The translations under genes were made by a program, and so were the position numbers. The notes below the pieces were generated by a model. That model saw nothing but the letters and a program-made list of their open reading frames with translations. It did no database searches and was not told the origin of the DNA. This document shows, one piece after another, positions 17,967 to 30,580 of a DNA stretch of 64,000 bases (the first letter of the stretch is position 1; each line of letters begins with the position of its first letter). Source of the stretch: Litoreibacter ponti. GTDB taxonomy: Bacteria > Pseudomonadota > Alphaproteobacteria > Rhodobacterales > Rhodobacteraceae. The stretch spans positions 223,207 through 287,206 of the forward strand of contig NZ_QBKS01000002.1 of the NCBI RefSeq assembly GCF_003054285.1, read 5' to 3'.

Positions 17967-19754
17967 ATGGCCGATAAGTCGAAGCTGAGATCGCAAAAGT
18001 GGTTCAACAACCCTGACAATCAGGAAATGACGGCGCTCTACCTGGAGCGCTACCTGAACTACGGCCTGACCCGCGAAGAGCTTCAGTCCGGCAAGCCGAT
18101 CATCGGCATCGCCCAGACCGGATCGGACCTGTCGCCCTGCAACCGGCATCATATCGAGCTGACCAAGCGGGTGCGCGACGGGGTGATCGCGGCGGGCGGC
18201 ACGGTGATCGAGATCCCCGTGCACCCGATCCAGGAGACCGGCAAGCGACCCACGGCGATGCTGGACCGCAACCTGGCCTATCTGTCGCTGGTGGAGACGC
18301 TGTTTGGCTACCCGATTGACGGCGTGGTGCTGAACATCGGCTGCGACAAGACCACCCCTGCCCTGCTGATGGCGGCGGCAACGGTGAACATTCCCGCCAT
18401 TGCGCTGAGCGTCGGGCCGATGTTGAACGGCTGGTTCAAGGGCGAGCGTACCGGCTCTGGCACCATCGTGTGGAAAGCGCGCGAGATGCAGGCGGCGGGC
18501 GAGATTGACGATGACGGGTTCATGGATCTGGTCGCCTCCTCGACCCCGTCGGTCGGCTATTGCAACACGATGGGCACGGCGACGACGATGAACTCGCTGG
18601 CCGAGGCGTTGGGGATGCAGCTGCCCGGCTCGGCCGCGATCCCGGCGCCCTACCGCGAGCGCGGCCAGATCAGCTACGAGACCGGCAAGCGCATCGTGGG
18701 CATGGTCGAAGAGGATCTGCGCCCCTCCGACATCATGACCCGCGAGGCGTTCGAGAATGCCATCGTGATCAACTCCGCCATCGGCGGGTCGACCAACGCG
18801 CCGATCCACCTCAACGGCGTGGCAAAGCACCTCGATGTGGCGCTCGGCAATGACGACTGGCAGGCGCTCGGCCATCGCGTGCCGCTACTGGTGAACCTGC
18901 AACCGGCGGGCAAGTATCTGGGCGAGGATTACCACCGCGCCGGCGGCGTGCCCGCGGTAATCGGCGAGCTGATCAAAGCCAACCTGCTGCCGCACCCGGA
19001 CGTGGTGACCGCCAATGGCAAGACGATGCGCGAGAATTGCGAAGGCATGCTGACGGGCAATTCGGATGTGATCTATTCCATCGACGCGCCGATTCTGAAG
19101 GATGCGGGCTTCATCAACCTCAAGGGCAACCTGTTCGATTCAGCAATCATGAAGACCAGCGTGATCTCCAAGGAATTTCGCGACCGGTACCTGTCGAACC
19201 CGGACGACCCCGACGCCTTCGAGGGGCGCGCGATTGTCTTCGACGGGCCGGAGGATTTCCACCACCGCATCGACGACGAAAGCCTCGGCATCGACGCGCA
19301 TTGCATCATGATCATGCGCGGCGCGGGGCCGAAGGGCTACCCGGGCGGGGCGGAGGTCGTGAACATGCGCCCGCCGTCTTACCTGCTGAAGAAGGGCATT
19401 CATGCCCTGCCCTGCGTGGGCGACGGGCGGCAGTCGGGCACATCTGGCTCGCCGTCGATCCTGAACGCCTCGCCCGAGGCCGCCGATGGGGGCGGGCTGG
19501 CGCTGGTGCAGACCGGCGACCGGGTGCGGATCGATCTTCGCAAATGCACCGCCGATATGCTGGTGGATGATGCCGAGCTGAAGGCACGGGCTGAAAAACT
19601 GGTAAACGGCTCCATTGAGGTGCCGGACAGCCAGACGCCGTGGCAAGAGATCTTCCGCCAGCTGGTGCGGCCCTTCAGCGAGGGCATGACACTCGACGGG
19701 GCGGCAAAATACCAAGACATCTCGCGCAAATACATGCCGCGCGACAATCATTAG
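17967..19754 (+). CDS. IlvD/EDD-family dehydratase (pentonate / aldonate dehydratase-like)
   Basis: 595 aa with CDKxxP-like Fe-S region ([12 protein letters not shown]) and SxGYC motif. Confidence 0.85.
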
Positions 19755-19765
19755 GGAGTTTTGAC

Positions 19766-20614
19766 ATGAAACTGGTTCGCTACGGAGACAAGGGCGCGGA
19801 GAAGCCCGGCATGATCGACGCCGACGGCCAGCTGCGCGACCTCAGCGGTCATGTGGCCGATATCGACGGCGCACATCTGGGCGACGCCGTGCTGCATTCC
19901 CTGGCCGGGATCGATCCGACCCACCTGCCCGCGGTCGGGGGCAACCCGCGGCTCGGGGCCTGCGTGGGCTCGATCGGGAAGTTCCTGTGCATTGGGCTGA
20001 ACTACTCCGACCACGCCGCCGAGACCGGCGCGGATATCCCCGAGCACCCGATCCTTTTCTTCAAGGCAAACTCCGCCATCGTGGGGGCCTATGATGACGT
20101 GATCATGCCCCGCGGCTCGACCCATACCGACTGGGAGGTGGAGCTGGGCGTGGTGATCGGCAAGGAGTGCAAATACGTCTCCGAGGCCGACGCGCTGGAT
20201 TACGTGGCGGGTTACTGCGTGGTCAATGACGTCTCCGAGCGGCATTTCCAGACCCAGCTGACCGGCCAGTGGACCAAGGGCAAAAGCTGCGACACGTTCG
20301 GCCCCACGGGCCCGTGGCTGGTGACCCGCGACGAGGTGCCGGACGTGCAAAACCTCGCCATGTCTCTCGACGTCAATGGCACGCGCATGCAGACCGGGAA
20401 CACCAACACGATGATCTTCACCGTGGCGCAGATTATCGAGCATTTGTCGGGGCTTATGACATTGCATCCGGGTGATGTCATCACCACCGGCACGCCCCCG
20501 GGCGTAGGCATGGGCATGAAGCCGGAACCTGTCTACCTGAAGAGGGGCGACGTGATGGAGCTGACCATCGAAGGGCTCGGCACCCAGCGCCAGACCGTGG
20601 GAGAAGACGCATGA
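19766..20614 (+). CDS. fumarylacetoacetate hydrolase (FAH) family protein (2-keto-3-deoxy-acid dehydratase / hydratase-like)
   Basis: MKLVRYGDKGAEKPGMIDADGQLRDL start, typical of FAH/KdaD-like proteins. 282 aa. Confidence 0.8.
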   Translation: MKLVRYGDKGAEKPGMIDADGQLRDLSGHVADIDGAHLGDAVLHSLAGIDPTHLPAVGGNPRLGACVGSIGKFLCIGLNYSDHAAETGADIPEHPILFFKANSAIVGAYDDVIMPRGSTHTDWEVELGVVIGKECKYVSEADALDYVAGYCVVNDVSERHFQTQLTGQWTKGKSCDTFGPTGPWLVTRDEVPDVQNLAMSLDVNGTRMQTGNTNTMIFTVAQIIEHLSGLMTLHPGDVITTGTPPGVGMGMKPEPVYLKRGDVMELTIEGLGTQRQTVGEDA

Positions 20615-21567
20615 GCCAGCCGGAAGTCCTGCAGATCGGCGGCGCGACAGACGAGATGCGTGCCCGGCTCGACGCCGAGTTCAAGGTCCACGTGATGTCG
20701 GAGATCGACGATTTCGACGCCTGGGCGGCGGAGCACGGCGCGGGCGTGGAAGCGGTTATGACCAACGGCCATGACGGGGTGCCTGCGAAAGTGATGGAGG
20801 CGCTGCCAAACCTCAAGGTCGTCTCTGGCTACGGCGTGGGCTACGACGCGGTCGACACCGACGCCTGCGTGGCGCGCGGCATCAAGGTCTCGCACACCCC
20901 CGACGTACTGAATGGCGAGGTCGCCAACACGGCGCTGCTCTTGCTGCTCGCGGGCCTGCGCAACTTCCGCCATGACGAGGCCTGGGCGCGCTCGGGTGAT
21001 TGGGAAACAAGCGGCAATGCGCCCTTGTCCACCTCGCCCGACGGCAAGACCATCGGCATCCTGGGGCTGGGTCGCATCGGTCAGGAAATCGCCGACCGGA
21101 TGGCGATTTTCAATCCGACGATCGTCTATCACACGCGCTCGAAAAAGGACGTTCCGTACACGTATTACGGCGATCTGGTCGAAATGGCCGCCGCCTGTGA
21201 CGTGCTGATCTGTATCACGCCCGGGGGCCCGTCCACGAATAAAATCGTGAACAAACAGGTGCTTGAGGCGCTTGGCCCATCGGGCATGCTAATCAATGTC
21301 TCCCGCGGCTCGGTCGTCGATGAGGCGGCGCTGATCGAGGCCCTCGACAGCGGCAAGCTGGGCCTTGCTGGCCTCGATGTGTTCGAGAAAGAACCCCACA
21401 TCCCCGACGCGCTGAAGACGTCTGATCGGACTGTGCTGCTGCCCCATGTAGGCTCCGGCACGCATGAGACGCGGGCGGCGATGGGCAAATTGACGGTGGA
21501 CAATCTGCTTCAGTGGAAGGCCGACGGCACGGTCAAAACCCCGGTGCCGGAATGCGCGCATCTATGA
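20611..21567 (+). CDS. D-isomer-specific 2-hydroxyacid dehydrogenase (GhrA / hydroxypyruvate reductase-like)
   Basis: GxGxxG motif ([13 protein letters not shown]) with catalytic R/E/H positions. ATGA overlap with the upstream gene. Confidence 0.85.
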
Positions 21568-22652
21568 AGATCGCGTCTGTTGAGGCGCGTTTGTTCAACG
21601 TGCCTTTGGACGAGGTTCTGGTGGACGCCAAACATGGCGACCACCACTTTTTTCAGCTGGTCTGCGCGACGGTCCGGCTGGAAAATGGCACCGAGGGCGT
21701 CGGCTACACATACACGGGCGGCAAGGGCGGCACGGCCATTCTGGCGATGATCCGGGACGATCTGGGCCCGTTCCTTGTGGGTCAAAACGCTGAAAACGTT
21801 GAAGACTTATACGATGCGATGCAATGGCACGTGCATTACGTAGCGCGCGGCGGAATCGCGTCTTTCGCGATCTCCGCGGTCGATATCGCGCTGTGGGATT
21901 TGCGGGGCAAGGCATCGGGTCAGCCTTTGTACAAGATGGCCGGCGGAGCGGCGGACAGGTGCCGGGCCTATTGTGGCGGGATCGATCTGGGGTTTGACCT
22001 GCCAAAGCTTTTGGACAGTGTGCAGGGCTACCTCGACCGCGGCTTCAACGGGGTGAAGATCAAGATCGGACGCCCCGATGATCTTGAGCGTATTCAAGCG
22101 GTTAGAAAGCTCATCGGGCCGGATATCGCATTCGCCGTGGATGCCAATTATTCGCTGGATGTTGATCAGGCGATAGCACTCGCAAAAGGCTTCGCGGAGC
22201 ACGATATCATGTGGTTCGAAGAGCCGATTATTCCCGATAATTATCAAGGTTTTGCGCAGATTGCGGACGCCACGGGCGTGCCGCTCGCCATGGGGGAGAA
22301 CCTGCACACGGTGCATGAGTTCGAATATGCCCGCGATCAGGCGAAGTTAAGTTTTGTACAACCTGACGCGTCCAATTGCGGCGGCATCACAGGCTGGCTT
22401 CAGGCGGCTGACGTCTTTGATAACACGGGCGTTTCCGTCTGCTCCCACGGGATGCAGGAGCTGCATGTCTCGCTGGTGTCAGGCCACGATCCAAAGGGCT
22501 GGATCGAGGTGCACTCCTTCCCCATCGACCGCTACACAACCCGGCCGCTGATGGTCGAGGATCACATGGCGGTGGCGCCGGACGTGCCCGGGACGGGGGT
22601 GGAATTCCGCTGGGACATGCTCGCCCCGTTCGAGCAGCGCGCGGTCGTTTAG
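21564..22652 (+). CDS. enolase-superfamily enzyme (MR/MLE family; acid-sugar dehydratase-like)
   Basis: Track ORF trimmed to [11 protein letters not shown] at 21564. KIKIG / D..E..D metal-site spacing. Confidence 0.8.
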
Positions 22653-22748
22653 ACGTCTAACGCGCTCGGGGCCCGGTTAGGTGCTGGGTCTTGGCGGGTT
22701 TTTCGCTTTCGCGGGGATCACAGTGCGTCCGTCAAGCAATAAAGAGCT

Positions 22749-23726
22749 TCAGGCAACCCCCGCCATCTTCGCCCTGAGCCGGATCAACGCCAGCACGGTG
22801 TCCACGGTGGGCGTCGGGTGGCCGGTGAGGGTGCCGAGTTCGGAGACGGCGCCGACGAGGGCCTCGATCTCCATGGGGCGGCCGGCGTCGAGGTCCTGCC
22901 ACATGGATGTGCGGTGCGCGCCGACGGCGGCGCCGCCGTCGATACGGCGGTCGACATCGATGGGGAACTTCACGCCCAGCGCCTCGGCGATGGTTTGCGC
23001 CTCGACCATCATACCGCGCGCCACGGCGCGGGTGCCGGGGTCGGTGCAGAGCACATCGAGCGTCGCGTGGGTCAGCGCGGAGATCGGGTTGAACGACAGG
23101 TTGCCCCAGAGCTTCACCCAAATCTCGTCGCGGATGCGCGGGCGCACCGGGGCCTTCAGGCCCGCGGAGGACAGCGCCTTTGACAAGGCCAGAGCGCGGT
23201 CGGATTTGGAACCGTCAGGCTCGCCCAAACTAAAGCGGTTGCCCTCGATATGCTTGATCGTGCCGGGCTCTGACACCTCGGCGGCGGGGTAGACGACGCA
23301 GCCCAGGACCCTGTCGGGGCCGAAGCCGTCCCACTGGGCGTTGCCGGGGTCGACGCTTTCCAGCCTTGTGCCCTCGTAGGGGCCGTCGAGCTTGTGGAAA
23401 TACCACCACGGCACCCCGTTTACACCGGAGACAATCGTGGTGTCGGGGCCGATGAGCGGCTGCATATGGGGCACCACGCCGGGGACCGAATGGGCCTTGA
23501 GCGTGACGATCACATAGTCCTGCGGGCCGAGATCAGCGGGGTTGTCGGAGGCGGTGACGGCGACGTTGGTTGTCTCGCCGCCCTCCTCGATCAGGGTCAG
23601 GCCCTTCTCCTGCATGGCGGCCAGGTGCGGGCCGCGGGCCACGAGGGACACATCGGCCCCGGCCTGCGCCAGTTTGACACCCATATAGCCGCCGATGGCC
23701 CCGGCGCCGAAGATACAGATTTTCAT
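22749..23726 (-). CDS. 2-dehydropantoate 2-reductase family protein (PanE/ApbA)
   Basis: MKICIFGAGAIGGYMG Rossmann motif plus ApbA C-terminal domain. 325 aa. Confidence 0.8.
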   Translation of the reverse strand: MKICIFGAGAIGGYMGVKLAQAGADVSLVARGPHLAAMQEKGLTLIEEGGETTNVAVTASDNPADLGPQDYVIVTLKAHSVPGVVPHMQPLIGPDTTIVSGVNGVPWWYFHKLDGPYEGTRLESVDPGNAQWDGFGPDRVLGCVVYPAAEVSEPGTIKHIEGNRFSLGEPDGSKSDRALALSKALSSAGLKAPVRPRIRDEIWVKLWGNLSFNPISALTHATLDVLCTDPGTRAVARGMMVEAQTIAEALGVKFPIDVDRRIDGGAAVGAHRTSMWQDLDAGRPMEIEALVGAVSELGTLTGHPTPTVDTVLALIRLRAKMAGVA

Positions 23727-23738
23727 GGTGCGTCCCCC

Positions 23739-25265
23739 TCAGGCAGGCTCGACCAGACCCAGCTTCTCGGCCATGCCGATCCGCTGCATCTTGCCAGTAG
23801 CGCCCTTCGGGATCTCGTCGAGGATCACCACTTTGCGCGGCGCCTTGAAGTCGGCCATGCGGGATTTGGCGAAGTCGCGGATGGTGGCCTCGGTCGCGTC
23901 GGAACCTTCGGTCAGGACCACGGCGGCGGCGACCTCTTCGCCCAACTTCGGGTGCGGCAGGGCGAAGGTGACGACCTGCGCCACGTCGGGGCTGTCCAAG
24001 AGCACCGCGTCGACCTCCAGCGGGGACACCTTTTCGCCGCCGCGATTGATGATCTCTTTCAGGCGGCCGGTCAGCGACAGGTAGCCCTCGGCGTCAAACG
24101 AGCCCTGATCGCCGGTGCGGAACCAGCGTTTGCCCTCGGCCTCGAAGAAGTTCTTCTCGTTGGCCTCGGGGTTGCCCTCGTAGCCGGGGGTGACATTGGG
24201 ACCGGAGATGCAGATTTCGCCGGTGCCGTCGATCAGGCGGTTCTCGACCTCGTGGGCGATGCGCACCTCTGGGCCTGCGGGCACGCCGACGGAGCCGGGC
24301 TTTTGCGCGCGGGGCGGCAGCGGGTTGGAGGCCATCTGGTGCGTCGCCTCGGTCATGCCGTAGCCCTCGATCACGGGGGCGTTGAAGGTCTCGACCAGCT
24401 TGGTGAAGACCGGCGGCGGCAGAGAGGCCGAGGACGAGCGCAGGAAGCGCAGCGGCACCTCGGCGATGGTGTCGGCGTTGCGGGACGCGCGTGACAAGAT
24501 CGCCTGATGCATTGTGGGCACGGCGGTATACCACGTGGGCTCGGCATCCGACATCCAGCTGAAGAACTTCAGCGCATCAAAGCCCGGCGCGCACCAAACC
24601 TGCCCGCCCGCCTTGAGCGTGGCGGAGACGGCGGCGATCAGCCCGTGGATATGGAAGAGCGGCATCACGTTGAGGCAGCGATCCTCGGGCGTCAGGGCGA
24701 GGCTCTCGGCGATGTTGGCCGCCGAGGCCGCGACGTTGGATTGCAAAAGCGGCACGATCTTCGGGCGCGACGTGGTGCCGGAGGTGTGCAGGATCAGTGC
24801 GACATCATCGGGTTCGGGATCGCTCGTGTCAGCGCCCTCGTCCGCCTCGAAGGTCAGGGTGAACATGCCCGCAGGGTCCGACGCGTTGGCGCTCAGGCGC
24901 AGGATCTTCAGACCCGCCGCACGCGCCGCAAGGAAGGCCGGGCCGTCATAGCCCTCGGCCAGCACGATGGCCTTGGCCTGCAGATCGCCGAGATAGAAGG
25001 CGTATTCGTCCTCGCGGTAGGCCGGGTTCAGCGGCGCGGTGGTGCAGGTCTGCGCGATGGTCACGAAGGCCGACGCCATCTCGGGGCCGTTGGGCAGCAC
25101 GATGGCCACCCGGTCGCCGCGCCCGACCCCTGCGGTGTTGAGCTGGACGCGCACGGACTGGCTGAGATCGCGCAGGGCGCCGTAATTCATCCACGGGCGA
25201 TCCGGCGCACCGATTGCGTTGGCGTCCGCGGGATGGGACGCGATGAGGGAAGCGAAAGTGGTCAT
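23739..25265 (-). CDS. AMP-dependent synthetase / ligase (acyl-CoA synthetase)
   Basis: 508 aa. AMP-binding signature TSGTTSRPK and EGYGMTE, with C-terminal GEKV / GK motif. Confidence 0.85.
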   Translation of the reverse strand: MTTFASLIASHPADANAIGAPDRPWMNYGALRDLSQSVRVQLNTAGVGRGDRVAIVLPNGPEMASAFVTIAQTCTTAPLNPAYREDEYAFYLGDLQAKAIVLAEGYDGPAFLAARAAGLKILRLSANASDPAGMFTLTFEADEGADTSDPEPDDVALILHTSGTTSRPKIVPLLQSNVAASAANIAESLALTPEDRCLNVMPLFHIHGLIAAVSATLKAGGQVWCAPGFDALKFFSWMSDAEPTWYTAVPTMHQAILSRASRNADTIAEVPLRFLRSSSASLPPPVFTKLVETFNAPVIEGYGMTEATHQMASNPLPPRAQKPGSVGVPAGPEVRIAHEVENRLIDGTGEICISGPNVTPGYEGNPEANEKNFFEAEGKRWFRTGDQGSFDAEGYLSLTGRLKEIINRGGEKVSPLEVDAVLLDSPDVAQVVTFALPHPKLGEEVAAAVVLTEGSDATEATIRDFAKSRMADFKAPRKVVILDEIPKGATGKMQRIGMAEKLGLVEPA

Positions 25266-25287
25266 GGGTCTGTCCTTCTCGTCTCGC

Positions 25288-26805
25288 TTATTCTGCCGGG
25301 GTCATGCCGCGGCGGCGCGAAGTTCTGAGGTATTTAAATAGCGGCAGCAGGAAGAAAACCAGTGCCAAGCCGATGAAAGTGGCCGAGAGCGGGCGCTCGA
25401 CGAAGGCCAGGATGTTGCCCTGCTCGCCAATCAGCGTCTGCCGGAAGCTCTTTTCCATGAGCGGGCCGAGCACCAGTGCCAGCACGAGCGGGGCCAGCGG
25501 GTAGTCCGCCTTGCGCAGCAGGTAGCCCGCCACGCCGAAGCCCGCGATCAGGTAGACGTCATGCATCTTCTGGGACGGCGCAAAGCCCCCCACGATGCAC
25601 AGCACCAGCACGACCGAGCAGAGCACGGTGAACGGCATCCGCAGCGCGTAGACAAAGAGCGGGATCAGCGCGAGGTTGATCAGCACGGCGGCCACATTGG
25701 CCGTGTAGAGCGACGAGATAAGGCCCCAGACGAAATCCGGCTGCTCGATAAACAGCATCGGGCCGGGCACGAGGCCCCACATCACCATGCCGCCCAGAAG
25801 CAGGGCGGTGGTGGGCGAACCGGGAATGCCCAGCGTCAGCATCGGCAGCAGCGAGCCGGTGGAGGCGGCGTTGTTGGCCGTCTCCGGCGCGACCACGCCT
25901 TCCATGTTGCCCTTGCCGAAGCTGTCGGGATCCTTGGAGGTGGAGCGCGCCATGCCGTAAGCCATCAGGGCCGCGGGCGTGGCGCCTGCGGCGGGCAACA
26001 TGCCCACGAAGAAGCCCAGGAACGAGCCAAGTGACATGGATTTCCACATCTTGTTGATCAGCTTCAGGCTTGCGCCCAGCTCGCGGAAGCTGAGCCGCGC
26101 GGGCGTGACCGAGGGGTTCGACTTGGACGTCTCGATCGTGTGCAGCACCTCGCCGATGCCGTAGACGCCGATGGCCAGCACCAGGAAGGAGATGCCCGAA
26201 TAAAAGCCCGGCATGTCGCCGAAGATCAGCCGCGGCTGGCCGGAGATCAGATCAAGCCCCACCGTGGACAGCGCCAGTCCCAGCGCGATCATCACTATGG
26301 TTTTCAGCACGTCGTCACCGCCCAGGCCCACAAAGGTCGTGAACGCCAGCAGCACCAGCGCGAACTCCTCCGCCGGGCCGAATTTCAGGGCCAGATCGGC
26401 CAGCGGGGCCGCGAACAGCGTGAACAGGATCACCGCGATGGTGCCCCCGATGAACGACGCCGTCGCGGCAGCAATCAGCGCCAGCCCGGCCTTGCCTTGT
26501 TGAGCCATGGGACGGCCATCAAAGGTGGTGGCCACCGCCGTAGACGCGCCGGGAATGCCAAGCAAGATCGAGCTGACGGCCCCGCCATACATCGCGCCGT
26601 AATAGATTGCGGCGAGCAAGATGATGGCAGAGGACGGGGGGACGATGAATGTCAGCGGCAGCACGATGGCCACCCCGTTGACCGAGCCCAGGCCCGGCAT
26701 CGCCCCAATGAAAAGTCCCGCGGTCACCCCGATGACCACGATGAAGATATTGAACCACGACAGCGATGTGGCAAAGCCGTCGGCGAGAAGTGCGAGGGTT
26801 TCCAT
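25288..26805 (-). CDS. tctA: tripartite tricarboxylate transporter permease TctA
   Basis: 505-aa polytopic membrane protein, TctA-like. GGGAGG ribosome-binding site. Confidence 0.9.
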   Translation of the reverse strand: METLALLADGFATSLSWFNIFIVVIGVTAGLFIGAMPGLGSVNGVAIVLPLTFIVPPSSAIILLAAIYYGAMYGGAVSSILLGIPGASTAVATTFDGRPMAQQGKAGLALIAAATASFIGGTIAVILFTLFAAPLADLALKFGPAEEFALVLLAFTTFVGLGGDDVLKTIVMIALGLALSTVGLDLISGQPRLIFGDMPGFYSGISFLVLAIGVYGIGEVLHTIETSKSNPSVTPARLSFRELGASLKLINKMWKSMSLGSFLGFFVGMLPAAGATPAALMAYGMARSTSKDPDSFGKGNMEGVVAPETANNAASTGSLLPMLTLGIPGSPTTALLLGGMVMWGLVPGPMLFIEQPDFVWGLISSLYTANVAAVLINLALIPLFVYALRMPFTVLCSVVLVLCIVGGFAPSQKMHDVYLIAGFGVAGYLLRKADYPLAPLVLALVLGPLMEKSFRQTLIGEQGNILAFVERPLSATFIGLALVFFLLPLFKYLRTSRRRGMTPAE

Positions 26806-26819
26806 GTCTCAGCCCCTCC

Positions 26820-27317
26820 CTAAAAGAATGCCGCGTAGAGCGGGAAGAACCACGGCTCCGTCCAGCCCTTGGGCAGCAGGATCTTGAGCGTGACCTCGAA
26901 AAAGAAGAACAGGAAGACCGGCGTCGTGAGGCACAGGCTCAGGGTCAGCACCCAGCCGTGGCCGCCGAACATCTTGAGATACCAGAACATGAACAGCGGC
27001 AGCGCGATGTAGGCGCCCAGGTAGGGCATGGCGACGATGCACGCGATCAGCGCGCCCGCCACCGAAGCCACCGAGGTGATGGTGGTGCGGTCAAAGAAGC
27101 GGCCGTCCTCGGACGTCATCTGATGGTCGGCCTGGAAAGAGCGGATGAAGATGCCTCCCGCGGCGAGCAGCATGATGGCCGACAGCCAGAACGGGAAGGC
27201 CCCGCCGCCGGGGCCCTCGCCCTCGACCCAGCCGATGGGCAGGACGGTGGCGTGCCACATGAAATAGATGGATAGCGCCATGATCGACGCCGCAATTGTG
27301 CGGTCTGCGGTCAGCAT
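26820..27317 (-). CDS. tctB: tripartite tricarboxylate transporter TctB family protein
   Basis: Four TM helices, about 165 aa from ATG at 27317 (GGGGGG ribosome-binding site). Track ORF extends to 27347. Confidence 0.65.
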   Translation of the reverse strand: MLTADRTIAASIMALSIYFMWHATVLPIGWVEGEGPGGGAFPFWLSAIMLLAAGGIFIRSFQADHQMTSEDGRFFDRTTITSVASVAGALIACIVAMPYLGAYIALPLFMFWYLKMFGGHGWVLTLSLCLTTPVFLFFFFEVTLKILLPKGWTEPWFFPLYAAFF

Positions 27318-27407
27318 AGCTGGCCCCCCAAGAGATAGATGAAACAAGGTCGGGCAAGGCGACGTCGCGCCTTGCCCTATCGTGTCAGAAGTCTCTCCCG
27401 AGCGTCC

Positions 27408-28391
27408 TTACGATCCGGCGTTCTCGCCCATCGAGGTCAGGATATCGCTGTGCAGGGCGCGCTCTTGCAGGAAGTAGGCCTGCAGATCATCGCCGGTCAG
27501 GAAGTCGGGCATCAGCGCCTTCTCGGACGTGTAAGTCTGCCACTCTTCCGTCTCGCTCAGCTTCTGGAACATGTCGGTGTAATAGGCCACGGCCTCTGCC
27601 GGCATGTCCTTGGGGGCCACGAAGCTGCGCTGCATGGTGTAGACCAACTCGTGGCCCAGCTCGCCCATGGTGGGGACATCGGGGAAGGCTTCGATCCGCT
27701 CGGCGGTGAAGGCCGCGATCGGACGCGACTTGCCGGCCTGGTAGAAGCCCATCTGCTCGGACGGGTTGTTCACGGTGCTGTCGATGTGACCGCCCACGAG
27801 GTTCTTGGCCACGGTGCCGCCGCCTTTGAAGGGCACGTAGGTGTGCTTGATGCCGAACTCTTTCTCCAGCATCGCGGTCACGAGGCTGTCTTCCGCGCCG
27901 GTGCCGGTGCCACCCATCTTCCAGCTTCCGCCAGCGGCCTTCACGGCGGCGACGTAGTCATCAAGCGTCTGGATGTCGCTGTCGGCATTCACCCACAGCA
28001 CGAACGTGTCGAGCGCCATGCGCGCGATCGGGGTGTATTCCTCGATATCGACGCCAATGTCGGTGCGCAGCGGCGTGGTGTAGTAGCTGTTGAGCGTCGC
28101 CATGATCGTGTGGGCGTCGCCTTCCTTGTCTTTGAGGTATCGCAGGGCCTCCGCGCCGGAGCCGCCGCCCTTGTTGATCGGCAGGACGGGCATCTGCGCG
28201 AGGTTCTCTTTCTGGATGATCGACTGGAACAGGCGCGCCAGACGGTCTGCGCCACCCCCGGTGCCGGCCATGATGACCATCTCGATGGGCTTGTTGGGCT
28301 TCCAGCCCTCGGCGGCTGCCGGGACGGCTGTGGCAAGCGCCGCGGTGGCGGCGAGCGCGATCATTGCGCGGCGGGTCAGTGAGTAAGTCAT
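27408..28391 (-). CDS. tctC: tripartite tricarboxylate transporter substrate-binding protein TctC (Bug family)
   Basis: Signal peptide MTYSLTRRAMIALAATAALATAVPAAA, Bug-family length. GGGAGGA ribosome-binding site. Confidence 0.85.
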   Translation of the reverse strand: MTYSLTRRAMIALAATAALATAVPAAAEGWKPNKPIEMVIMAGTGGGADRLARLFQSIIQKENLAQMPVLPINKGGGSGAEALRYLKDKEGDAHTIMATLNSYYTTPLRTDIGVDIEEYTPIARMALDTFVLWVNADSDIQTLDDYVAAVKAAGGSWKMGGTGTGAEDSLVTAMLEKEFGIKHTYVPFKGGGTVAKNLVGGHIDSTVNNPSEQMGFYQAGKSRPIAAFTAERIEAFPDVPTMGELGHELVYTMQRSFVAPKDMPAEAVAYYTDMFQKLSETEEWQTYTSEKALMPDFLTGDDLQAYFLQERALHSDILTSMGENAGS

Positions 28392-28550
28392 GTAAAGTCC
28401 TCCCATGGCGCTCGTTCATGCACTGGCGTCTTCAGACTGACCATTTTCCCGGCACGAGCAGTTTCGATGCGCATTTACCTACCCATACGAAATTAAATTA
28501 CACGAAAAAGCGCGTTTCTGTGTTATGTGGAAAGATAACAGATGAATAAT

Positions 28551-28570
28551 CTGTAAACTTGTAAACAAAC
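28551..28570. promoter_or_regulatory. direct repeat TGTAAAC-N2-TGTAAAC in the scfR / tctC divergent region (candidate operator)
   Basis: ctgtaaacttgtaaacaaac read directly. An AT-rich island lies between the divergent ATG codons. Confidence 0.3.
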
Positions 28571-28583
28571 TGCATACCAAGGC

Positions 28584-30005
28584 ATGCCTATGGACACGAC
28601 CCGCAAGACCCTCGTCGGCCCCTCCCTGAGACAGCTGCGCCGCGACAATCGCGAAACGCAGGCCCAGATGGCCAAGCGGCTGGGGATAAGTGCGGCCTAT
28701 GTGAACCTGTTGGAAAACAACCAGCGCGCCCTGTCGGTGCAAGTCCTTATGGCCATTACGGAAACCTATGGCGTGGATTGGCGCGACCTGATCGCCGACA
28801 ATGACGCGGCCCGGCTGGCCGATCTGCGCGCGGCGCTGCGCGACCCGGTTTTTGGCCCCGAGATCCCCGACCTGCAGGAGCTGCGCGCCGCGCTTGATCA
28901 CGCGCCCCGGCTGGTGGAGAAGTTCCTGTCCCTGCATCGCTCGCACCGCATGACGATGGACCGGGTGATGGCGCTTGGCAGCGATGAAGGCGCATCCGGG
29001 CTGATCGCGACCTCGCCCGAGACCGCGATCCACGACTACTTCCGCAACCACGGGAATCACTTCGACACGCTGGAACGCCGCGCCGAGGCGATCCGGGGGG
29101 AGATCGGCGGCGGACCCGATGATCTTTACGCCGGGCTGAAAGCGCGGCTGGGCGCGCGGCACGGGGTCGTCGTGCAGATCGGGCGCATCCATGACATAGG
29201 CGCGCGGCTGCGCGACTACGATCAGGCGGCGGGCAAGGTCATCCTGTCGGAAGCGCTCGATCACCCCAACCGGGTCTTTCAACTCTGCCACGTGCTGGCG
29301 CTGCTCGAGGTCTCGGGCGAGATCGACCTGCTGCTCGAAGACGCAGCCATCGCCGACGAGGCGGGCGCGGCGCGCTGCCGGGTGGAGCTGGCCAACTACG
29401 CCGCCGCGGCGATCCTGATGCCTTATATGGAGGTGCTGGAGCTGGCCGAAAGCACGCGCTACGACCTCGACCGGATCGCCGCGGGCTTCGGCGTGAGCTT
29501 CGAGCAGGTCTGCCACCGGCTGACCACCTTGCAGCGCGATGGCGCGCGCGGTGTGCCGTTCTTCTTCCTGCGCACCGACAAGGCGGGCAATGTCACCAAG
29601 CGGTTCAACTCGACCTCCTTCACCCTCGCCGAGCAGGGCGGCGCCTGCCCGGTCTGGAACATCCACGGGGCCTTCCGGACACCCGGGGTGATCCTGCCGC
29701 AATTCGTCGAGTTGCCCGAGGGCGGGCAGTTCTTCACCCTCTCGCGCACCTCCGACCGCCCGGTCTTTTCGCGCGCCACGCAGGACCGGCGGCTGGTGGT
29801 CACGCTGGGCTGCGAACGCACCCACGCAGAACGGATCGGCTATGCGGCGCCCTTCAACATAAGCGAGCGCGACCTGTTCGACCCCATCGGGATCAACTGC
29901 CATCTGTGCCCGCGCCAGGCCTGCTCCCAGCGCGCCCACCGCCCGCTTCATGTCAATCTTCCGCTCGATGCCAACCGGCGCGGATCGACCCGCTACGAGA
30001 GCTGA
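28584..30005 (+). CDS. short-chain fatty acyl-CoA regulator (ScfR / RamB / PccR-type; XRE HTH + C-terminal effector domain)
   Basis: N-terminal XRE HTH (LRQLRRDNRETQAQMAKRLGISAAYVNLLENNQR) followed by a roughly 400-aa domain, as in RamB/PccR regulators. 473 aa. Confidence 0.7.
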   Translation: MPMDTTRKTLVGPSLRQLRRDNRETQAQMAKRLGISAAYVNLLENNQRALSVQVLMAITETYGVDWRDLIADNDAARLADLRAALRDPVFGPEIPDLQELRAALDHAPRLVEKFLSLHRSHRMTMDRVMALGSDEGASGLIATSPETAIHDYFRNHGNHFDTLERRAEAIRGEIGGGPDDLYAGLKARLGARHGVVVQIGRIHDIGARLRDYDQAAGKVILSEALDHPNRVFQLCHVLALLEVSGEIDLLLEDAAIADEAGAARCRVELANYAAAAILMPYMEVLELAESTRYDLDRIAAGFGVSFEQVCHRLTTLQRDGARGVPFFFLRTDKAGNVTKRFNSTSFTLAEQGGACPVWNIHGAFRTPGVILPQFVELPEGGQFFTLSRTSDRPVFSRATQDRRLVVTLGCERTHAERIGYAAPFNISERDLFDPIGINCHLCPRQACSQRAHRPLHVNLPLDANRRGSTRYES

Positions 30006-30154: not shown

Positions 30155-30580
30155 ATGCGTAAATTTGCGATCATGACCGCTTGTGCGGTTGCCATGACTT
30201 CCGGCGCCGCTTTGGCCGTCGACACTGAAGACGAAGAACTCAATGGCATCGGCGATCCGCTGACCACGTCCCGGATCGACATCCGCGGCGGCGTGTTCTT
30301 CCCGCCCATGGTGATGGCGGAAGTCGGCAAGACCTACTTCATCCGCAACAACGAAGAGATCGTGCACAATGCGACCGCCATCGATGGCAGCTGGTCCACC
30401 GGCGACATCCAGCCCGGCGGCCAGGCGGTTGTGCATCTGACGGCCAGCATGACGCGCTGCTTCGAGTCCACCGTGAACCCGGAATACAAGGGCGCCTTCG
30501 GCGATGCCCTGTCCGGCGAAGCGCCTGAGTGCTTCGAGCTGTCCGGCGCAGGCGAGACCGACGCGGCCAACAACCAGTAA
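30155..30580 (+). CDS. small secreted protein, cupredoxin-like fold suspected (no complete Cu site)
   Basis: Signal peptide MRKFAIMTACAVAMTSGAALA. GKTYFIRNNEEIVHN resembles pseudoazurin / plastocyanin strand-turn-HN, but the C-terminal Cys is not followed by His/Met ligands. Confidence 0.55.
   Translation: MRKFAIMTACAVAMTSGAALAVDTEDEELNGIGDPLTTSRIDIRGGVFFPPMVMAEVGKTYFIRNNEEIVHNATAIDGSWSTGDIQPGGQAVVHLTASMTRCFESTVNPEYKGAFGDALSGEAPECFELSGAGETDAANNQ

Follow-up and report, generated by a model that had tools for sequence, protein, structure and literature searches.

The 64-kb window of Litoreibacter ponti DNA analyzed here (the whole stretch, 'the window' below) contains a six-gene locus in which a regulator of the ScfR/IsaR family is encoded divergently from a candidate operon for oxalate uptake, activation and reduction. 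The regulator gene (28590–30005, + strand) encodes 471 residues with HTH_3, Peptidase_M78 and ScfRs domains, and its product is 100% identical to L. ponti C8N43_3053. The operon lies on the − strand and begins with the genes for a tripartite tricarboxylate transporter (TTT): TctC (27408–28391; 327 residues; Pfam TctC, 110 bits), a Bug-family periplasmic binding protein and the presumed oxalate receptor; TctB (26820–27317; 165 residues; Pfam TctB, 59.7 bits), the small membrane subunit, whose longest open reading frame extends to 27347; and TctA (25288–26805; Pfam TctA, 483 bits), the large membrane subunit. These are followed by an AMP-forming ligase of the AAE3/Pcs60 type (23739–25265; Pfam AMP-binding and AMP-binding_C), a candidate oxalyl-coenzyme A (oxalyl-CoA) synthetase, and by a PanE/ApbA-family reductase (22749–23726; Pfam ApbA and ApbA_C), a candidate oxalyl-CoA reductase, as the last gene. 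The gaps between operon genes measure 12–90 nt. The 198-bp region between tctC and the regulator gene has a GC content of 0.52, compared with about 0.65 nearby, and holds a conserved control cassette (28501–28567) with presumed operator and promoter elements for both genes. Pfam searches and independent gene calls bear out the six genes given in the first-pass annotation, with their coordinates and families, and the base composition bears out its AT-rich divergent region; the regulator start is moved from 28584, an in-frame ATG two codons upstream, to 28590.

Enzymes and transporter of the tct operon

The best solved relatives of the ligase are all oxalate–CoA ligases: AAE3 of Arabidopsis (5ie0; 419 bits, E = 4e-124; 47.6% identity over 479 residues), the grass pea enzyme (6qjz; 390 bits) and Pcs60 of yeast (8aff; 363 bits). 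The next class, malonyl-CoA synthetase, reaches 193 bits, so that the oxalate ligase score is more than twice as high. The oxalate pocket of AAE3 is formed by eight residues, and two of these, Ser289 and His319, reportedly distinguish oxalyl-CoA synthetases from other ligases (PMC8905533). Both are kept in the window ligase, as are His216, Met314 and Lys500 (AAE3 numbering), and the remaining three positions differ conservatively (V to I, C to S and A to G). The protein scores under every NCBIfam equivalog cut-off, including those of the FadD7 family (402 versus 650 bits) and malonyl-CoA synthase (275 versus 558 bits). The homology and the retained specificity residues indicate that the ligase most likely converts oxalate, ATP and CoA to oxalyl-CoA. 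It resembles the plant and yeast enzymes in its identity to AAE3 and in the two retained oxalate contacts, and differs from them in being bacterial and in the proposed fate of its product, since plant oxalyl-CoA goes to decarboxylation whereas reduction is expected here. A search of the accessible literature for a bacterial oxalyl-CoA synthetase returned nothing relevant; bacterial oxalate activation is described there only via formyl-CoA transferase.

The reductase was compared with PanE2 of Methylobacterium extorquens, using a translation of the panE2 cassette in Supplementary Table 12 of PMC12686821; the two proteins share 56.5% identity across 322 residues (E = 1.6e-125). PanE2 is used as the M. 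extorquens oxalyl-CoA reductase in that study (PMC12686821) and is cited as such elsewhere (PMC7486775). The ApbA2 protein of Cupriavidus necator shares 51% identity with PanE2, and mutants lacking it grow more slowly on oxalate (PMC7486775); the window reductase is thus closer to PanE2 than is a homolog with a genetic oxalate phenotype. NCBIfam labels the window protein only as a 2-dehydropantoate 2-reductase subfamily member. The reaction most likely catalyzed, judging from these homologs, is the conversion of oxalyl-CoA and NAD(P)H to glyoxylate and CoA. The window protein shares the ketopantoate reductase fold and an association with oxalate genes with ApbA2 and with PanE2 of strain AM1. 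It differs from both in its setting: its gene shares an operon with those for an ATP-consuming ligase and for a TTT transporter, whereas PanE2 and ApbA2 act downstream of Frc and Oxc. A reading of the locus as feedback on pantoate synthesis, in which a 'PanE' is paired with a CoA-sensing regulator, was dropped in view of the 56.5% identity to PanE2 and the AAE3-like ligase.

The two enzymes are also encoded together outside this setting. In Methylobacterium bullatum (L092), an ortholog 80% identical to the M. extorquens PanE2 is followed directly by a ligase 59% identical to that of the window. On plasmid pSC52_2 of a member of the Rhodobacteraceae (L089; CP049030.1, 3831–10504), a ligase–PanE2 pair (72% and 81% identical) comes after genes for an ABC transporter and for a regulator of the FadR type. 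In Phyllobacterium (L091), a PanE2 homolog lies beside gcl–hyi, pntAB, frc and oxc, the last encoding a thiamine pyrophosphate enzyme, and PanE2 homologs elsewhere adjoin GntR regulators. The ligase and PanE2 evidently form a two-enzyme module that has been combined with varied uptake and control parts. Because homologies and gene contexts agree, a path from oxalate through oxalyl-CoA to glyoxylate is the straightforward reading of both enzymes. The 'uncharacterised carboxylate' route of the first-pass annotation can accordingly be given an assignment, with clear homologs of AAE3 and PanE2, oxalate as the most likely substrate and glyoxylate as the most likely product.

The transporter belongs to the TTT class, with TctC, TctB and TctA encoded together and all above their Pfam cut-offs. 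TTT proteins 56–64% identical to those of the window (TctA 60–64%, TctC 56–57%) are encoded beside regulator orthologs in several Rhodobacterales, in operons of the form (oxc)–frc–formyltransferase–(fhs)–usp–tctC–tctB–tctA. The presence of these homologs within frc/fhs/oxc operons supports an oxalate-related cargo. The substrate of a TTT system is not readable from its sequence, and it is from this gene context that we infer import of oxalate by the window TctCBA.

The regulator clade, its control cassette and its neighbors

The regulator is a full-length member of the ScfR family, as the first-pass annotation had proposed. In the profile search suggested there, the C-terminal ScfRs domain covers all 157 positions of its profile at 197 bits (cut-off 24), preceded by HTH_3 (residues 15–69; 39 bits) and Peptidase_M78 (67 bits). 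Against PrpR of Mycobacterium tuberculosis (MtPrpR) the protein scores 198 bits. The four [4Fe-4S] cysteine ligands are kept: C353 and C437-X2-C440-X4-C445 (CHLCPRQAC) align with C363 and C447-X2-C450-X4-C455 of PrpR and are invariant in 88 sequences. Four of the six PrpR contacts to CoA are identical, with F230, the histidine of VCHRL, R328 and K337 matching F240, H319, R338 and K347; a further contact, K410, is replaced by arginine. The regulator is therefore most likely an Fe-S-containing ScfR/IsaR protein with a CoA cavity, a predicted acyl-CoA binder. It shares with PccR of Rhodobacter sphaeroides, class 2 RamB of Paracoccus denitrificans and PrpR of M. tuberculosis (MccR group) an architecture of an XRE helix-turn-helix, an IrrE/M78-like domain and a ScfRs/DUF2083 GAF-like domain, as well as the cysteines, the CoA contacts and a gene divergent from the presumed target pathway. 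Unlike these three, it has oxalate and glyoxylate genes as neighbors in place of pcc, aceAB or prp.

Scanning a single genome from each species, with 8-kb flanks that make the counts of frc, oxc and fhs lower bounds, gave 80 loci with regulator orthologs at 59–70% identity, from Rhodobacterales, Rhodospirillales, Kiloniellaceae, Hyphomicrobiales and other groups. A search of 72,556 plasmids gave a single match at 59% identity, while the remaining 227 records reached about 40% at most, a gap that defines a sharp clade boundary. References for the named clades were labeled by gene context. The PccR type is represented by a Sinorhizobium meliloti pSymB regulator divergent from pccB–pccA–mcm (37% identity to the window protein), RamB class 2 by four regulators divergent from aceB/icl or aceA (35–40%), and the MccR type by a Paracoccus yeei regulator beside prpDCB (37%). 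In a neighbor-joining tree the 82 clade members (81 orthologs and the window protein) form one group, separated by a long branch from every PccR, RamB2 and MccR reference.

The clade is also set apart by the residue at the position of PrpR Phe155. According to the published PrpR study, this position sets ligand choice and is occupied by Trp in R. sphaeroides PccR and by His in M. tuberculosis RamB, which responds to succinyl-CoA. In the window regulator the corresponding residue is Glu144, and Glu is found in 82 of 82 clade members. The references have Phe (MccR), Tyr (PccR) and Val, Val, Val and Gln (RamB2), so that Glu here contrasts with Phe, Tyr or Trp in propionyl-CoA sensors, Val or Gln in the class 2 RamB references and His in M. 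tuberculosis RamB. There are 26 clade-specific positions, among them Arg152 and Arg262, both of which lie near Glu144 in sequence.

Membership in each named clade raised by the first-pass annotation and placed in the tree was rejected. For PccR, identity is 37%, the branch is separate, no pcc genes lie nearby, Glu replaces Tyr or Trp and TTTGCAAA does not occur in the intergenic region. For RamB of class 1 and class 2, the regulator scores 372 bits against the NCBIfam equivalog NF038139 (cut-off 700), is 35–40% identical to the aceB/icl-divergent regulators and branches separately. For MccR/PrpR, identity to the P. yeei regulator is 37%, the MtPrpR score is 198 bits and Glu replaces Phe. With regard to IbcR, branched-chain acyl-CoA genes were found in none of the 81 loci. 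A regulator clade that stands apart from PccR, RamB and MccR, is tied to oxalate and glyoxylate genes and has its own operator and selectivity residue appears to be new. The PrpR study mentions 'several unresolved pathways' in the ScfR/IsaR family, a remark suggesting that this clade may have been seen and left unnamed.

The control cassette ends in two tandem TGTAAAC boxes (28552–28558 and 28560–28566). The direct repeat noticed in the first-pass annotation is real, with a one-base spacer (start-to-start distance 8) in place of the two bases given there. The other elements are CAC (28501–28503), GCGCGTTTCTGTGTTAT (28510–28526) and ATAACA (28535–28540). With three mismatches allowed, the TGTAAAC pair is the sole match in the window (0.05 expected), and a degenerate form of the repeat had 0 matches in 100 shuffles. 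When upstream regions are aligned on the tandem boxes, the consensus CAC-N6-tcGgGTTtatGTGtT..(N11)..aaCa-N9-aT.TGTaAa.TTGTaAA fits 75 of 80 without gaps. Conservation of the repeat had been proposed as a check; its position and geometry are kept upstream of 72–75 of the 80 orthologous regulator genes, which makes it a clade-wide operator-like element and not a trait of a single locus. The cassette of about 65 bp, ending in TGTwA-N3-TGTwA, is retained whether the regulator faces a tct operon or the c1 gene described below. Across the fitted loci 13–66 nt separate the boxes from the regulator start codon; in the window the boxes lie 24–38 nt before it. In 1.4 Mb of related loci scanned with at most one mismatch, nearly all of the 77 sites are at this position, and no site was found in the ligase/PanE2 loci with other regulators (L089–L092).

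The box core TTGTAAA is one base off the TTGCAAA core of PrpR and RamB sites, and repeats of TTG(C/T)AAA-type boxes likewise make up the operators of PccR, RamB and PrpR. In its tandem layout the element resembles the MtPrpR site, TTTGCAAA-N1-TTTGCgAA, from which the present element differs in having an 8-bp in place of a 9-bp period and in lying inside a longer fixed cassette. The PccR operator is reportedly TTTGCAAA-N18-TTTGCAAA (Carter and Alber, 2015). Class 2 RamB sites consist of TTTGCAAA pairs spaced by 18 bp (PMC10370305) and so also differ from TGTwA-N3-TGTwA. The regulator most likely binds the cassette through these tandem TTGTAAA-type boxes, a putative operator. A second full cassette, in the same relative orientation, is present upstream of c1 in loci where c1 ends a TTT operon and is not divergent from the regulator (L009, L043 and others). 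This copy indicates that the cassette serves the leftward gene and is not only the promoter of the regulator.

The divergent tctCBA–ligase–PanE2 operon accompanies the regulator in only about 15 of the 80 loci, all from Rhodobacteraceae (L001–L007, L052, L063–65, L067, L070 and L072) and split over two separate branches of the regulator tree. The expectation in the first-pass annotation that operon and regulator are conserved together holds for these genomes, while most regulator orthologs pair with c1 and with glyoxylate or oxalate genes. The c1 gene encodes an unnamed protein of about 350 residues and is the commonest neighbor, adjoining the regulator in at least 59 of the 80 loci (L082, 7796–8848, − strand; L009, 9471–10535; 57 other loci). 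A few regulator loci have neither the operon nor c1 within the flanks. The c1 protein gives a weak Pfam match to the ApbA N-terminal domain only and falls in no NCBIfam family. Its profile aligns with the PanE2 profile over 299 columns at 96.7% probability (hhalign), marking c1 as a very distant full-length member of the PanE2 fold, and the two never occur together beside the regulator. The c1 proteins are a candidate second, divergent family of oxalyl-CoA reductases.

A class V aminotransferase follows c1 in 27 loci, the nearest named family being the aspartate–glyoxylate aminotransferase BhcA (593 bits, cut-off 650). In 16 loci c1 is followed by hprA, for hydroxypyruvate reductase, and some loci also have glyA. 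The fullest set is found on plasmid pLA6_002, where c1–glyA–aminotransferase–hprA–...–folD lies on one side of the regulator and oxc–frc–formyltransferase–fhs–usp–tctCBA on the other, with genes for formate dehydrogenase, ppc and malate-thiokinase-like proteins farther out. This set matches the genes with which M. extorquens reportedly assimilates oxalate via the serine cycle (Schneider et al., 2012).

Two further genes recur in these neighborhoods. A gene of the methionyl-tRNA formyltransferase type (Fmt model 132 bits, cut-off 201) is conserved in the oxc operons, where it stands between frc and fhs (L082, 16462–17379, − strand; L043, L047, L048 and L059); it might connect the folate pool with formyl-CoA or formate. 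Some loci of the tct type have, after the regulator gene, a gene for a YbgC/4HBT-like acyl-CoA thioesterase of about 156 residues (L001, 5980–6450, + strand; L003, 9408–9878, + strand; L004 and L006) that has no counterpart in the window. In P. yeei, the prp operon that adjoins the MccR-type regulator likewise starts with an acyl-CoA thioesterase gene.

Proposed oxalate circuit and competing explanations

We think it rather probable that the locus is a module for oxalate assimilation whose dedicated regulator senses acyl-CoA and belongs to a ScfR clade that responds to oxalyl-CoA and controls the use of oxalate. TctC would bind periplasmic oxalate and TctBA would import it, and basal activity of the transporter and the AAE3-type ligase would turn the incoming oxalate into oxalyl-CoA. 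Oxalyl-CoA would then fill the CoA cavity of the regulator, which, bound to the cassette, would raise transcription of tctCBA–ligase–PanE2 from the tctC promoter; the boxes near its own start codon would allow autoregulation. The PanE2-type reductase would drain oxalyl-CoA to glyoxylate and so close the loop, and glyoxylate would join central metabolism via genes outside the locus. That the regulator works by activation and not by de-repression is an assumption, made solely on the model of PccR, PrpR and P. denitrificans RamB. Oxalyl-CoA is put forward as the effector on the ground that no other CoA ester is shared by the enzyme sets beside the regulator: it would arise in the ligase and PanE2 contexts and through Frc and Oxc in the subset of c1 loci with frc or oxc in the flanks. 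The first-pass suggestion that the effector is the CoA ester formed by the ligase thus remains a reasonable one.

Several observations weigh against this reading. To our knowledge, no TTT system has been shown to carry oxalate. A search of the window for oxc, frc, fhs, glyA, a glyoxylate aminotransferase, hprA, mtkAB and ppc returned only a 29% hprA-like match. Among the 80 orthologous loci, frc, fhs or oxc was seen within the 8-kb flanks in only 3–4, a lower bound, and many c1-type loci, for example in Rhodospirillales, have no other oxalate gene nearby. On pLA6_002 no box motif occurs upstream of oxc, where a GntR gene sits directly upstream, and oxalate decarboxylation may therefore lie outside the regulon. 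A sigma-70 scan of the window's intergenic region found no consensus promoter, and manual placement of −35 and −10 elements in the cassette was unconvincing. The tree that separates the clade is a neighbor-joining tree without support values. The main reason for caution is the invariant Glu144, which is unexpected beside an anionic oxalyl group.

This glutamate is among the arguments for an alternative we consider unlikely, in which the enzymes act as described and the regulator is a general glyoxylate or C2 regulator that senses another signal, such as formyl-CoA, the balance of free CoA and acetyl-CoA or another small acyl-CoA. Glu at the selectivity position is odd with an anionic acyl group under the oxalyl-CoA proposal, most orthologs flank c1, a glyoxylate aminotransferase gene and hprA and not an oxalyl-CoA-forming enzyme, and P. 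denitrificans RamB responds to esters of a pathway other than its target (PMC10370305). However, the ligase–PanE2 module makes no formyl-CoA, oxalyl-CoA chemistry is common to both contexts, and c1, as a full-length remote homolog of PanE2, would place an acyl-CoA reductase partner beside the regulator in both settings.

The enzymes themselves could have evolved specificities other than those of AAE3 and PanE2, so that the operon would handle a different small carboxylate such as malonate, glycolate or glyoxylate, or a 2-oxo acid. The position of the ligase below every equivalog cut-off, the three conservative substitutions among the eight pocket residues and the general NCBIfam name of the reductase would all fit this view, which we nevertheless regard as quite improbable: both residues that mark oxalyl-CoA synthetases are retained, the ligase scores more than twice as high against oxalate ligases as against malonyl-CoA synthetase, and the reductase family sits in frc/oxc/gcl loci and adjoins the ligase in Methylobacterium, the genus of the characterized PanE2. 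Still less credence is given to a purely incidental adjacency, with the regulator controlling itself or distant genes and the tct operon under another factor. The presence of ligase and PanE2 on pSC52_2 next to an ABC transporter and a regulator of the FadR type, the GntR regulators beside other PanE2 homologs and the closeness of the boxes to the regulator's own start codon point in that direction, but the divergent layout recurs in about 15 genomes on two separate branches of the regulator tree, and the whole cassette is found again before c1 at sites that no regulator gene follows, and so serves the leftward gene.

A broader form of the oxalate reading, to which we assign slightly less than an even chance, is that an undescribed ScfR/IsaR subclass senses oxalyl-CoA and governs oxalate use in marine and soil Alphaproteobacteria, that c1 is a new and very divergent oxalyl-CoA reductase family and that the window operon is an ATP-driven route independent of Frc and Oxc. 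Classical oxalotrophy, with the OxlT antiporter, Frc and Oxc, likewise centers on oxalyl-CoA, and regulator orthologs adjoin frc and oxc in other Rhodobacterales. The window differs in its proposed TTT uptake and ATP-costing activation and in that oxlT, frc and oxc are all missing from the 64 kb. Each part is of a known kind (a ScfR/IsaR regulator, an AAE3-type ligase, a PanE2-type reductase and a TTT transporter). What appears to be new is a bacterial operon that contains no frc, oxc or oxlT and joins TTT uptake to activation at the cost of ATP and to direct reduction.

The regulation of bacterial oxalate metabolism was described in a 2024 review as hardly studied (PMC13409138), and no description of a CoA-ester-sensing or ScfR regulator of oxalate use was found in the searchable literature. 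Surveys of oxalotrophy rely on frc, oxc, oxlT and oxdC as markers (PMC10192776) and would overlook a module that has no frc, oxc or oxlT. The operon suggests that members of the roseobacter group take up and assimilate oxalate without these three genes, in which case marine oxalate turnover may be underestimated. If the assignment is correct, oxalyl-CoA, a C2 dicarboxyl ester, joins the effector range of the ScfR/IsaR family, and the clade offers a natural test of how the position of PrpR Phe155 sets ligand choice. A two-step conversion of oxalate to glyoxylate by the same ligase–reductase pairing has been engineered into yeast (PMC12686821), and a natural bacterial version with transporter and sensor could serve as a part set or biosensor.

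Adjacent genes and minor features

Four genes on the + strand (17967–22652) converge on the reductase gene and encode an IlvD/Edd-family dehydratase, an FAH-family hydrolase, a D-2-hydroxyacid dehydrogenase and an MR/MLE enolase-superfamily enzyme. This cluster resembles an operon for sugar-acid catabolism and seems to have no connection with the oxalate module. Its FAH-family gene was considered as a possible part of the module and rejected, being only 30–36% identical to the FAH genes near PanE2 homologs (L089, L091 and L092) and a member of the sugar-acid cluster. On the other side of the locus, a 141-residue open reading frame (30155–30580, + strand) with a signal-peptide-like N-terminus was excluded from the system, as Pfam gave no match and the related loci contain no homolog.

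Two hairpins lie between genes of the region. The gap between tctC and tctB contains a GC-rich hairpin with a 10-bp stem (GGGCAAGGCG..CGCCTTGCCC; 27352–27377, − strand), which could reduce read-through or stabilize the tctC transcript and so lead to more binding protein than membrane subunits. A terminator-like hairpin (22666–22694, + strand) occupies the 96-bp gap between the converging MR/MLE and reductase genes and may act as a terminator for both transcripts.

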